Source: an uncultured Candidatus Binatia bacterium
GTDB taxonomy: Bacteria > Desulfobacterota > Binatia > UBA9968 > JAJDTQ01
NCBI GenBank assembly: GCA_965213675.1
Contig: OZ243916.1
Span: 1,696,001-1,760,000 of the forward strand
Direction of reading: 5' to 3'
DNA: 64,000 bases
The notes beneath the pieces were generated by a model, which was not told the DNA's origin, searched no databases, and saw only the letters and a list, made by a program, of their open reading frames with translations. Below, piece by piece: positions 59,423 through 61,669 of this stretch. The translations under genes were made by a program, and so were the position numbers. How positions within the stretch are numbered: the first letter of the stretch is position 1; each line of letters opens with the position of its first letter.

Positions 59423-61669
59423 TCAATTATCGGCAAAGAAGGGGCGAAACTTCTCGTAGAGGTCGCGCAGCCGCGCCTTGTAGTAGTCCACATTCTCGTC
59501 GGGGTGCTCGGGGTCCCATTCCGACACGTAGCGGCAGTTCTCGTTGACCGTAACGCCGGCGCCCTCGCCGGAGACATAGTAGGAGACCTGGTCCCCCGCC
59601 AGGTAACGGCGGTCCGAACGCAGCGCCACCTCATAGGCGCCGCGGGGGTGCTGTTTCCCGCCCTTGACCTTCATCTGGTACTCGTCCAGGGAGTCCCGCA
59701 GGGTTTCGGTGCGCTTCAGGAGAGACAGATCGAGGCGGTGGTGGGTCAGAGCCTCGCGGTAGTGCTCGTAAAGCGCCGGTATCTCGCCCTTCCGCCCGTC
59801 CATGAGCAGCCGGAGCATCTCTTCCAGCCACTTGCGCCGGTAACGCTCGAGGCCGCGGGAGTTGAACCGCGGGCCGTTCAGGGACAGCTCCCCCTTGTCA
59901 TCGAGCAGCGCATGTTCCCCGGCGCCGCAACAGAACATCGCCCGATAGCGCGCGAGGGGCAGGTTCAGCCCCCAGGGCAACGCCGCGGCCACCGCCGCAT
60001 TCACCATCGCTTCTTCCGCGGGACGCTCCATGATGTCCGCGGGAGGCACGAAATAAATGCCGCCGGACTCCATCGTGAGCACCCCGGCGCCGCGCGACTC
60101 CAGGCTTTCCGCCAGACGGCGCACGTGCTCGCACCCGGCGCGAGTCACATGGTCCGCGGCTTCGGGGTCGTTGAAGTGGACCGCGGACGCGGCCAGGTAT
60201 CGGTGCAGCGACTCCACGCACACGGCGAACGCCGCGCGCGCCGTGGCCATGAAGCGGGAAGCGTCCCGCTCCGGTGCGGCGTCGGCCACGAGCCCGGCCC
60301 CGTCCCGCAGGTCCTGGAACCCGCGCACCAATGCCGGGAAGACCTCGAGATCATCTGATCGAGGCCGGCAACGGCCGTGGCGCATGACCGCGGCATAGAC
60401 CGGGTCGAGTTCACAGTGAAGCACGCGCCGTGACACGCCCGCGACCCTCGATTCCGCCACCTTCCCGCTCACCCGCGCCGGGTTCGCCGGAACGGGCACG
60501 GAATGCCGCCGGGCATGGTATTCCCGGAGCATGAGCCGGTCGATGGCGGTGACATCGTCCATCAGCGGCGTGTCCTGGTAGCGGCACGGGAGGATACGCG
60601 CCTGGAGGAAGTAGCCCGGCGAAAGCACCGCGGAGATGGCGCGGGTTTCCCGCACGTCGTCGAGGGCGTAGCGGAAGAGCGTGTCCGGATCGTGGTCGAA
60701 GTACCAGTTCGCTTCGGCCCCATGTATGTACGTGCGCTCCGGCGCGGCCACGCCGAAGTGGCGCGCCACATCCTTCAGGCCGTTGCGCTGGAGCGCGCGG
60801 TCAGCGCGGCTGTAGCGTTGCGCCAGGAACCACGTATCGATGACGTGGCGCCCGTGGATCGCGTAGTTGGGAAACGGAATCACGCGGTCGTCCGCCTGGA
60901 AGCGCTCGGAACGCCGGCGTGGCGCGCTGCCATCCCGGCCCAGCGCGAGGCTGACACCGTACCGCCGGGCGCGCTCCTCCACATAAGGAAGGTCGAAGCG
61001 GAAGAAGTTGTGTCCCTCGATCACGTCCGGGTCCCGGCGGCGCACCTCCCGGACCATCTCCACCAGCATCGTTCCCTCGTCATGGTCCCTGCCCGACAGC
61101 AACCGCTCCCAGCCACTGCTGTCGGACATGGCGATGGCCGTGATGCGGTCCCCTTCGCGTCGCGCATTGGGGAACTCGAAGTCGGTGGTGCGGTACACCT
61201 CGAGGTCCACCTGCATGCGCAGGAGGCGGTCGAAGCGCATGCCCTTGAAGTGCGTCGTGCCGGACCCCACAAGATATTGCTGGACGGGGTCGCGCACCTG
61301 AAGGAACGGCAACCCGGGAGCGCCCTGACCCCTTCCGCTCTTGCGCAGAAGCCACGCTCGGGCGGATTCCAGGCTGTCCAAATCCGGGAAAAACGCCAGC
61401 CGCCGGAACCTGTGGGTCCCCGCGAGCGGCTCGATGCGGCATTCGCCCTTCCACCCCGCGAGCCGGTCCTCGGAGGTCAGCCAGAAGAATGGCTCGAACG
61501 GCACGGTGGTGGAGGAAACGGTGGTCGAAGAGTCGGGTGAAGGCTCCCTGGCGTAGATGCGGACCTGGCGCGGTCCCTCCAGCTCCACGGCCGTGACGGA
61601 AGGGGTGGCGTCACGGCCGAACAGGATCTGGGCGTCCGTGGGGATGTCCGTAGGGGTTGAAGCACACAT
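59423..61669 (-). CDS. Family B DNA polymerase homologue with intact 3'-5' exonuclease and degenerate polymerase site
   Basis: ExoI VDLEV, ExoII GHNFFRFDLPY, ExoIII YALDDVRET; polymerase motifs A/B/C read CELDPVYAA / FAVCVESLHRYL / MESGGIYF. Confidence 0.85.
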   Translation of the reverse strand: MCASTPTDIPTDAQILFGRDATPSVTAVELEGPRQVRIYAREPSPDSSTTVSSTTVPFEPFFWLTSEDRLAGWKGECRIEPLAGTHRFRRLAFFPDLDSLESARAWLLRKSGRGQGAPGLPFLQVRDPVQQYLVGSGTTHFKGMRFDRLLRMQVDLEVYRTTDFEFPNARREGDRITAIAMSDSSGWERLLSGRDHDEGTMLVEMVREVRRRDPDVIEGHNFFRFDLPYVEERARRYGVSLALGRDGSAPRRRSERFQADDRVIPFPNYAIHGRHVIDTWFLAQRYSRADRALQRNGLKDVARHFGVAAPERTYIHGAEANWYFDHDPDTLFRYALDDVRETRAISAVLSPGYFLQARILPCRYQDTPLMDDVTAIDRLMLREYHARRHSVPVPANPARVSGKVAESRVAGVSRRVLHCELDPVYAAVMRHGRCRPRSDDLEVFPALVRGFQDLRDGAGLVADAAPERDASRFMATARAAFAVCVESLHRYLAASAVHFNDPEAADHVTRAGCEHVRRLAESLESRGAGVLTMESGGIYFVPPADIMERPAEEAMVNAAVAAALPWGLNLPLARYRAMFCCGAGEHALLDDKGELSLNGPRFNSRGLERYRRKWLEEMLRLLMDGRKGEIPALYEHYREALTHHRLDLSLLKRTETLRDSLDEYQMKVKGGKQHPRGAYEVALRSDRRYLAGDQVSYYVSGEGAGVTVNENCRYVSEWDPEHPDENVDYYKARLRDLYEKFRPFFADN

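Follow-up and report, generated by a model that had tools for sequence, protein, structure and literature searches.

A family-B DNA polymerase homologue from Candidatus Binatia with degenerate polymerase motifs and conserved exonuclease residues

What is a full-length family-B DNA polymerase (PolB) kept for when the residues of its polymerase site have been replaced? The question is raised by a gene, here called polB, in a 64,000-nucleotide stretch of DNA from an uncultured Candidatus Binatia bacterium (assembly GCA_965213675.1, contig OZ243916.1, positions 1,696,001 to 1,760,000 of the forward strand). We refer to this whole stretch as the window. An initial annotation, made from the sequence alone, had described the gene as a PolB with a dead polymerase site and intact exonuclease motifs, and had suggested that it was repurposed and not decaying. 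We found that the degenerate form is present throughout the genus and that the gene is under purifying selection there. We think it likely, with a probability of roughly 0.6, that the exonuclease is the activity under selection and that the polymerase body serves as a DNA-binding frame for it.

Motif states and selection across the genus

We surveyed 123 species genomes of the window's order: 28 from its own genus, 5 from family f2 and 90 from family f3. The tallies of homologues, of the polymerase-domain model PF00136 and of DnaQ over the order include the unpublished genome G093, and the DnaE tally includes G093, G054 and G073; none of the sequences of these unpublished genomes was used, and no conclusion hangs on them. 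A PolB homologue was found in 78 of the 123 genomes. The form with degenerate polymerase motifs was present in 28/28 genomes of the genus, and these matches were free of stop codons and about 59-83% identical to the window protein. One copy (G007) is split over two contigs; the other 27 are full-length frames with conserved ends. Homologues in f2 (5/5 genomes) and f3 (45/90) were 42-52% identical to the window protein.

PF00136 was matched in 5/5 f2 genomes and 43/90 f3 genomes. It was matched in none of the other 27 genus genomes at E <= 0.001, and the window's genome gave no match at E <= 1. Searches of the window's genome, which is 97.7% complete, with PF03104 (the exonuclease domain) and with an active sister protein found this locus only. 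Based on the absence of PF00136 (0/28) and this single locus, the genus has no second, active PolB; the active paralogue that the initial annotation had proposed to look for was found neither in the window's genome nor in the other 27.

We compared the motifs of 27 genus coding sequences (CDSs; G007 omitted) to those of 27 active CDSs, using the numbering of the window protein. The active set was made of full-length matches only (2 + 25 loci; G093 and fragmentary matches were excluded). All 27 active sisters were canonical at D420 (motif A), at K482, N486, Y489 and G490 (motif B), at D534 and D536 (motif C), and at K584 and Y586 (KxY motif). In RB69, phi29 and Pfu polymerases, the aspartate of motif A and the second aspartate of motif C are metal ligands. 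Position 420 in the genus was D in 21 sequences and E in 6, with E420 in the window. Motif B had lost its asparagine and tyrosine throughout: position 486 was D in 16, E in 10 and R in 1 (N in 0/27), and position 489 was H in 22, Q in 3 and L in 2 (Y in 0/27). The other two positions of motif B were more mixed (482, K21/A4/S1/G1; 490, D16/G5/E4/R1/K1). The first carboxylate of motif C, at 534, was present in all (D26/E1). The second, at 536, was mostly glycine (G23/A2/D1/N1), and the window reads E534-S535-G536. The lysine of the KxY motif was found in 0/27 (584, G12/E12/D3) and its tyrosine in 5, the rest having histidine (586, H22/Y5). In the fingers, K459 was replaced by G in 21/27 and R463 by D in 20/27. 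The lone genus sequence with D536 (L006, which reads DSD) has Glu, not Asp, in motif A. The motif C replacements varied by lineage (DAG, DPG, DSD, ESG, DAA and DAN), and the most degenerate motifs were those of the window's own subclade of 5 sequences.

In contrast to the polymerase motifs, the residues of Exo I, Exo II and Exo III were intact in 27/27 genus sequences. The canonical Exo motifs of the initial annotation were thus confirmed by translation and extended to the genus. Its claim that every polymerase motif (A, B, C and KxY) is altered was likewise borne out by translation, by alignment and by the missing PF00136 match. The relatives carry degenerate polymerase motifs as well (27/27 full-length genus homologues); none had intact DTDG/SLYPS.

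Four residues of the fingers and palm were newly invariant in the genus. R472, T476, R478 and C580 (27/27 each) replace the I/V, A, Q and S of the active sisters. Because of this new invariance, we argue that the fingers are being re-used and are not decaying. The arginines R472 and R478 suggest a new surface for contact with DNA or a ligand, and not a passive scaffold.

Some of the active sisters were altered at the other site. The Asp of Exo I was replaced in 4/27 (by A, by G together with E->K, by H, and by H), and the Tyr of Exo III in 3/27 (C, D and C), with all polymerase motifs canonical. These sequences (L065, L074, L079, L080 and L084) are all from family f3. As judged from the motifs, one order seems to hold both forms, PolBs with a dead exonuclease and a live polymerase and PolBs with the reverse.

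The genus sequences formed a monophyletic clade (support 1.0) whose stem was long, at 0.78 substitutions per site. We estimated omega, the ratio of nonsynonymous to synonymous substitution rates (dN/dS), with one-ratio codon models (IQ-TREE, GY+F3X4), the topology being fixed for each group. For the active sisters n was 26, since L069, which ends at a contig end, was dropped. The gene is under purifying selection across the genus: omega was 0.126 overall, not near 1, and was lowest in the exonuclease domain (N-terminal domain 0.118, exonuclease 0.074, palm 0.199, fingers 0.347, thumb 0.102). For the active sisters omega was 0.072 overall and varied little among the domains (N-terminal domain 0.083, exonuclease 0.060, palm 0.080, fingers 0.071, thumb 0.061). 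Bootstraps of the genus values (20 column resamplings each) gave 0.057-0.087 for the exonuclease, 0.194-0.267 for palm plus fingers and 0.083-0.124 for the thumb. That is, the ranges of the exonuclease and of palm plus fingers did not overlap.

Residue conservation also differed by domain. The mean pairwise identity within the genus, compared to that within the actives, was 0.83 vs 0.79 in the exonuclease, 0.77 vs 0.78 in the thumb and 0.74 vs 0.68 in the N-terminal domain. It was 0.63 vs 0.74 in the palm and 0.57 vs 0.78 in the fingers. Positions invariant in the actives were kept by the genus at 75/100 in the exonuclease, 42/81 in the thumb, 30/56 in the N-terminal domain, 18/77 in the palm and 2/21 in the fingers. 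Conserved basic positions were kept at 17/21 in the exonuclease, 9/23 in the thumb, 0/7 in the palm and 0/4 in the fingers. The loss is therefore not restricted to catalytic residues, as had been proposed; palm and fingers are broadly relaxed. The thumb, which had been described as well conserved, is so overall (omega 0.10), but it has kept only those 9 of its 23 conserved basic positions.

We modelled the protein with AlphaFold2, using an input alignment of 117 sequences. The model was a confident PolB fold (mean predicted local distance difference test score, pLDDT, 95.5; predicted template modelling score, pTM, 0.93). Foldseek against the Protein Data Bank (PDB) returned archaeal PolBs (best E = 5e-35; TM-scores up to 0.78 over ~790 columns). 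The top TM-scores, 0.76-0.78, were to the Pyrococcus abyssi PolB on double-stranded DNA "in edition mode", and one uracil-recognition entry scored 0.77; most replicative-state complexes scored 0.67-0.70. The editing-like pose of the model is suggestive only. Language-model features of residues 386-600 were like those of a PolB polymerase domain (score 0.94).

Descent from G3 PolBs and recurrence in other relatives

The homology of the window protein to PolBs is far above chance. In the Pfam scan it matched PF03104 only (38.3 bits; cut-off 23) and did not match PF00136, for which an active sister used as positive control (P0034) scored 88.4 bits. Scores against the NCBIfam Pol II models were far under their cut-offs. 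The best solved relatives, by phmmer against the PDB, were archaeal PolBs (P. abyssi 4flt, E = 3.8e-17). The alignment with the P. abyssi enzyme ran in two stretches, residues 197-407 and 478-730, and placed AVCVESLHRY opposite KILANSYYGY and MESGG opposite IDTDG.

Wider searches found many relatives. A word-indexed search gave 1209 at E <= 0.001 among 8000 candidates scored. At the top was a block of 64-99% identical proteins with PF03104 alone; below it were hundreds of ~50% identical proteins with both PF00136 and PF03104, some of them labelled 'DNA polymerase II' of Candidatus Binatia or of a Deltaproteobacteria metagenome-assembled genome (MAG). A full scan with HMMER, over 1.84 billion representatives, found 1772 at the same threshold. 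The titles of public contigs carrying close relatives name Candidatus Binatia, and in one case uncultured Syntrophobacterales.

The gene is probably a full-length derivative of a bacterial PolB of group G3, the EpsilonN-like clade. A conserved Glu in motif C (E-x-DTDG) is described as a synapomorphy of G3, common also to PolEpsilonN and B10 (Kazlauskas et al. 2020, PMC7544198). This Glu, E532, two residues before DTDG, was present in 27/27 active sisters. In the genus the position was T in 25 and A in 2 (n = 27), with T532 in the window. We also searched 50,697 phage records with the active sister P0034. There were 19 matches, the best 37.7% identical over 98%; 17 were to Salinibacter, Nostoc, Anabaena or Dolichospermum phages and 2 were labelled 'uncultured'. 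PolBs of Salinibacter and Nostoc phages are given as the sole phage members of G3 in the same survey (PMC7544198). Because the sister clade carries E532 and its phage relatives are the named G3 phages, we infer descent from G3.

The differences from bacterial G3 PolBs are several. The Binatia protein shares with them the architecture of N-terminal domain, DnaQ-like exonuclease and polymerase fold, and its ~50% identical sisters carry the hallmark Glu. In contrast, it has degenerate motifs A, B, C and KxY, Thr in place of that Glu, and no clamp-binding-like tail. Some f3 actives end in QFSLL, QPSLLSL or ELALG; such tails were absent from 27/27 genus sequences and from the f2 sequences in a comparison of C-terminal tails. 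Timinskas et al. (2026, PMC12926913) describe G3 PolBs as conserving both active sites, exonuclease and polymerase, and as having a motif for binding the clamp; the claim of conserved polymerase sites, as worded there, needs qualifying.

The combination of altered polymerase motifs and kept exonuclease residues was found outside the genus as well. We classified 233 full-length family members by their aligned residues, in a set biased towards top matches and cluster representatives. Both sites were canonical in 151, the polymerase site alone in 35, neither in 10 and the exonuclease site alone in 37. Of this last class, 30 lie in the Binatia block. The seven others are metagenome proteins (P0087, P0122, P0142, P0148, P0152, P0182 and P0229), in which PF03104 was above its cut-off, PF00136 was under its cut-off or unmatched, and the polymerase motifs were degenerate. 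In a FastTree phylogeny, P0087 and P0122 were sister to the genus clade (support 1.0), and the remaining five fell in two separate groups, P0148/P0182/P0229 and P0142/P0152. The alignment and tree suggest that the polymerase site was lost and the exonuclease kept on at least three G3-like branches: the Binatia genus with P0087 and P0122, and each of the two other groups.

It is possible, at odds that we put a little below even, that exonuclease-only PolBs are an unrecognised and recurrently evolved class of enzymes that process DNA 3' ends. If so, bacteria that lack DnaQ would have in them autonomous editors of the 3' ends that repair polymerases without proofreading leave behind. One other member of the family (P0171, 837 aa) is a canonical PolB except for an intein-like insertion of ~220 residues within its motif B.

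Proposed function and alternatives

The other proofreading genes of the window's genome bear on what such an exonuclease could do. The DnaQ-type exonuclease model PF00929 had no match in this genome, and it was matched in only 13 of the 123 genomes of the order. There are two DnaE genes. In the PHP domain of the longer one (DnaE1), the metal-ligand positions (HxH, D, H, E, H, C, DxH) are the same as in the enzymes of Mycobacterium tuberculosis and Thermus aquaticus, in which the nine-residue PHP site is reported to be the proofreader (PMC5636811). Judging from these ligands, PHP proofreading is likely the rule in this order. The genome also has PolA, a DinB-type gene, and a weak Y-family match beside the second DnaE (ImuB-like). 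We detected no exonuclease domain in PolA; two PF01612 matches lie away from the polA locus. The PolB-derived domain was the only polymerase-type DEDD exonuclease detected in the genome. The two PF01612 (RNase D-like) matches (G000:C8:17141-17635 and G000:C1:2759482-2759976) have identical scores and frame lengths, which suggests that a segment of the MAG was duplicated or was binned redundantly (estimated contamination, 8%). Gain of a second DnaE (DnaE2) was considered as a cause of the relaxation of polB and rejected, because genomes with two DnaE-type genes are common in each of the three families, and there was no contrast among them.

We propose that polymerase catalysis was lost in or before the ancestor of this one Candidatus Binatia genus, and that the gene was kept thereafter for its 3'-5' exonuclease, of the DEDDy type, which sits on a polymerase body that still folds. 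The N-terminal domain, the thumb and what remains of the palm would hold a primer-template or gapped duplex. Fingers and palm would be unable to bind deoxynucleoside triphosphate (dNTP) or to position metals, so that the 3' end would not be held in the polymerase site. It would go by default to the exonuclease site, where two-metal hydrolysis would remove nucleotides in the 3' to 5' direction. Since there is no clamp-binding tail, action would be expected to be distributive. The enzyme might be an extrinsic editor for the exonuclease-less DinB, ImuB-like/DnaE2 and PolA polymerases. It might also serve in repair, trimming 3' ends that are mismatched or damaged. The loss of polymerase activity, the presence of exonuclease activity and the substrate are all deduced here from sequence.

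Three lines of evidence lead us to the exonuclease. First, constraint is graded, with exonuclease >= thumb > N-terminal domain > palm > fingers. Second, the exonuclease residues are fully kept in a family that loses them easily; as they were lost in 4/27 close actives and 45/233 family members, they are not kept by default. Third, changes at dNTP-contact positions reverse the charge. That the protein is repurposed and not decaying, as first suggested, fits the genus-wide motifs, a dN/dS of 0.13, the intact exonuclease residues (27/27) and the missing paralogue.

Several points weigh against this interpretation. The domain limits, which come from the alignment with P. abyssi PolB and from the domain boundaries of Pfu polymerase, are approximate, and dS may have reached partial saturation (tree length 8.6 substitutions per codon, 27 sequences). 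The loss of basic positions in thumb and palm may have weakened the binding of duplex in the polymerase cleft. The confidence of the AlphaFold model is probably driven by the mostly active homologues in its alignment, and the editing-like pose is weak evidence. About half of the f3 genomes had no PolB match, some of them 98-99% complete, and the parental enzyme is therefore dispensable in the order. In addition, archaeal PolB2 (Dpo2, Feng 2022), once predicted to be dead (Rogozin 2008), is reported to be a robust polymerase (PMC8764526). The initial annotation had cited PolB2 as its model of an inactivated clade, and that comparison no longer holds. Because the prediction failed there, the 'dead' polymerase site remains a prediction here. 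Lastly, carboxylates are present at both 420 (D21/E6) and 534 (D26/E1) in 27/27, so a one-metal or otherwise atypical site is possible.

These last two points also support a different proposal, namely that the protein has kept its DNA polymerase activity, through an unorthodox site that uses the motif A carboxylate and the first one of motif C. K482, too, is kept in 21/27, purifying selection still acts on palm and fingers (omega 0.20 and 0.35), and the language-model score of 0.94 points the same way. We nevertheless think this improbable. The second Asp of DTD is missing in 26/27, and L006, the exception, has the Glu in motif A. The dNTP-binding residues have been replaced (N486 by D/E in 26/27, R463 by D in 20/27, K459 by G in 21/27, K584 lost in 27/27). 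The replacements in motif C are lineage-specific, as expected without catalytic constraint, and PF00136 went unmatched in the genus at the thresholds given above.

Equally improbable, in our estimate, is that neither site is used and that the protein is a non-catalytic scaffold or DNA-binding factor. Inactive polymerase homologues of this kind are described in two surveys, the C-terminal half of Pol epsilon (PolEpsilonC) and ImuB (PMC7544198, PMC12926913). Purifying selection on the N-terminal domain and thumb would agree with such a role, as would the new invariant residues R472 and R478, which are of surface type. It would not account for the five exonuclease catalytic residues, all kept in 27/27 genus sequences and in P0087 and P0122 though lost in 45/233 and 4/27 elsewhere, or for the exonuclease being the most constrained domain (omega 0.074; 75/100 invariant positions kept). 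We found no conserved partner gene; the PAC2 neighbour described below reflects order-specific synteny.

A third proposal, that the protein is the replicative proofreader of Pol III in place of the missing DnaQ epsilon subunit, seems to us more doubtful than either of these. PF00929 is indeed unmatched in the window's genome and in 110 of 123 across the order. One survey remarks that some bacteria without canonical DnaQ "may possibly use noncanonical proofreaders", and that a G3 PolB is carried by all Chlorobi (PMC12926913). However, the PHP metal ligands of DnaE1 are intact, so a replacement for DnaQ is not needed. Furthermore, some near-complete genomes of the order lack matches to PolB and DnaQ alike (among them G049, G050 and G052, 98% complete), and the protein has no clamp-binding tail.

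It is very unlikely that the gene is a neutrally drifting, pseudogene-like relic that has yet to be interrupted: the polymerase model of Pfam is unmatched and polB evolves faster than most of its neighbours (distant genus members are 65-69% identical in PolB compared to 80-92% in UbiD, PAC2 and the oxidoreductase), but the frame is stop-free in 28/28 genomes and full-length in 27 over 59-83% identity, omega is 0.13 (0.07 in the exonuclease), and true decay, as in G081, looks different. The PolB remnant in that f3 genome (G081:C43:186875-189063) has several stops in frame, 4 TGA and 1 TAA within a single piece.

The reading that we favour, an exonuclease on a polymerase body, sets the Binatia protein apart from known systems. 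It resembles archaeal PolB2 and bacterial G2 in being a conserved clade with a non-canonical motif C that is predicted to be inactive. Those are its mirror image, however: they are reported to have lost Exo I and Exo III, to have no exonuclease activity and to polymerise robustly (PMC8764526, PMC7544198), whereas the Binatia clade keeps all Exo motifs and has lost polymerase residues, the second Asp of motif C among them. The Binatia protein is not a PolB2. Like it, the C-terminal half of Pol epsilon is a full PolB fold under selection after polymerase catalysis was lost. There, both sites are described as inactivated and the protein as a replisome scaffold (PMC7544198); in the Binatia protein the exonuclease site is intact. 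By analogy, the way of working might be that of DnaQ (the epsilon subunit of Pol III), mycobacterial DnaQ and the DP1 subunit of PolD, which edit ends made by another polymerase. The DEDD chemistry is alike, but the Binatia protein is DEDDy and not DEDDh, leaves PF00929 unmatched and is not homologous to DnaQ at the family level. It is also about three times larger, with a whole polymerase body, and has no partner or clamp motif that we could identify.

Our literature searches, which covered the surveys but not their supplementary tables, where such sequences might be listed, turned up no description of a PolB from bacteria in which the polymerase site is dead and the exonuclease site live. 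Proofreading sites are said to be lost more readily than polymerase sites (PMC12926913), and a polymerase kept only for its proofreader would be the opposite of this usual pattern. The genus, made up of uncultured soil bacteria, would then be a natural experiment on what the PolB body contributes to exonuclease function. It would also bear on the editing of error-prone polymerase products in bacteria that lack DnaQ. The annotation of such proteins, publicly labelled 'DNA polymerase II', can be corrected.

Gene layout and genomic surroundings

The 748-codon frame has zero internal stops, as first described, and is on the minus strand, which the initial annotation had not stated. A longer ORF could begin at an alternative upstream GTG (61795). 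The aligned ATG ('MC.ST..') is the start in 27/27 full-length genus homologues, and because of this 61669 is likely the start of polB. Coordinates of the gene and its parts are in Table 1.

Table 1. Coordinates in the window of polB, its domains and motifs, and flanking elements
Feature	Coordinates	Strand	Details
polB, complete CDS with degenerate polymerase motifs	59423..61669	-	748 aa + stop; ATG 61669, stop 59423-59425
N-terminal domain, part 1	61247..61669	-	aa 1-141; from P. abyssi alignment and AlphaFold secondary structure; approximate
3'-5' exonuclease domain	60659..61246	-	aa 142-337; PF03104 match
Exo residues			D155/E157 (Exo I), N221/D226 (Exo II), Y334/D338 (Exo III)
N-terminal domain, part 2	60515..60658	-	aa 338-385; from P. 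abyssi alignment and AlphaFold secondary structure
Palm, part 1	60305..60514	-	aa 386-455; holds degenerate motif A
Fingers	60191..60304	-	aa 456-493; hold degenerate motif B and R472, T476, R478
Palm, part 2	59927..60190	-	aa 494-581; holds degenerate motif C
Thumb	59426..59926	-	aa 582-748; degenerate KxY; without C-terminal clamp-binding-like tail
Exo I, DLE	61199-61207	-	translated from coordinates
Exo II, NFFRFD	60992-61009	-	translated from coordinates
Exo III, YALDD	60656-60670	-	translated from coordinates
Motif A, ELDPVYAA	60389-60412	-	translated from coordinates
Motif B, AVCVESLHR	60200-60226	-	translated from coordinates
Motif C, ESGG	60059-60070	-	translated from coordinates
KxY motif, GEHA	59909-59920	-	translated from coordinates
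Terminator-like GC hairpin followed by T run	59389..59401	-	22 nt past the polB stop
Upstream element CCGTTACAGA	61741..61750	-	~70 nt before the ATG; from alignment of 27 intergenic loci

The hairpin after the stop is consistent with polB being monocistronic, and is a weak signal (1 site vs 1.6 expected by chance). The upstream element CCGTTACAGA corresponds to TCTG(G/T)TA(G/C)A across the genus and could be the extended -10 box of a promoter. A consensus promoter scan made no call at CCGTTACAGA, and called a promoter-like site at 61910-61882 instead. We also looked for an operator or LexA-type site upstream and rejected it: the 27 intergenic regions had two conserved stretches and no assignable palindrome.

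The neighbours of polB are housekeeping genes. They encode UbiD, cytochrome c', an amidohydrolase, a pyridine-nucleotide disulfide oxidoreductase and a glyoxalase-like protein. Downstream on the minus strand is the gene for a membrane protein with a Urate_ox_N-like domain, and a PAC2-family gene runs divergently from polB. Membership of a defence system was rejected; the sole PADLOC result in this housekeeping neighbourhood was a partial match of the exonuclease motif to a model called 'homing endonuclease'. The PAC2 gene is a neighbour at 19/19 genus loci and at 5/5 active loci of the order. We rejected it as a functional partner, since in 19 PolB-bearing genomes outside the order it was absent in 14 and on another contig in 5. 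That is, its position is order-specific synteny.

At the end of the window, an ORF with a DUF3368 domain (63490-63978, minus strand; E = 1.1e-16) is beside the locus in some genus genomes only. The second, DnaE2-like DnaE is 18-47 kb from polB in 17 genus genomes (for example, G017:C1:2493417 vs 2514675). In the window's genome it is 1.6 Mb away, and the linkage elsewhere is regional synteny, not an operon.

The PAC2-family ORF (61766-62683) probably begins at ATG 61889 (MDSDAV...) and not at the listed TTG 61766. With this start, it would share a divergent intergenic region of 219 nt with polB. An element of ~17 nt at 61864-61880 (plus strand), 9-25 nt upstream of ATG 61889, is conserved in the genus. 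Read on the minus strand it is TGTACCACATCTGTTCA in the window and TAGCACATCTGTTCA in most relatives.

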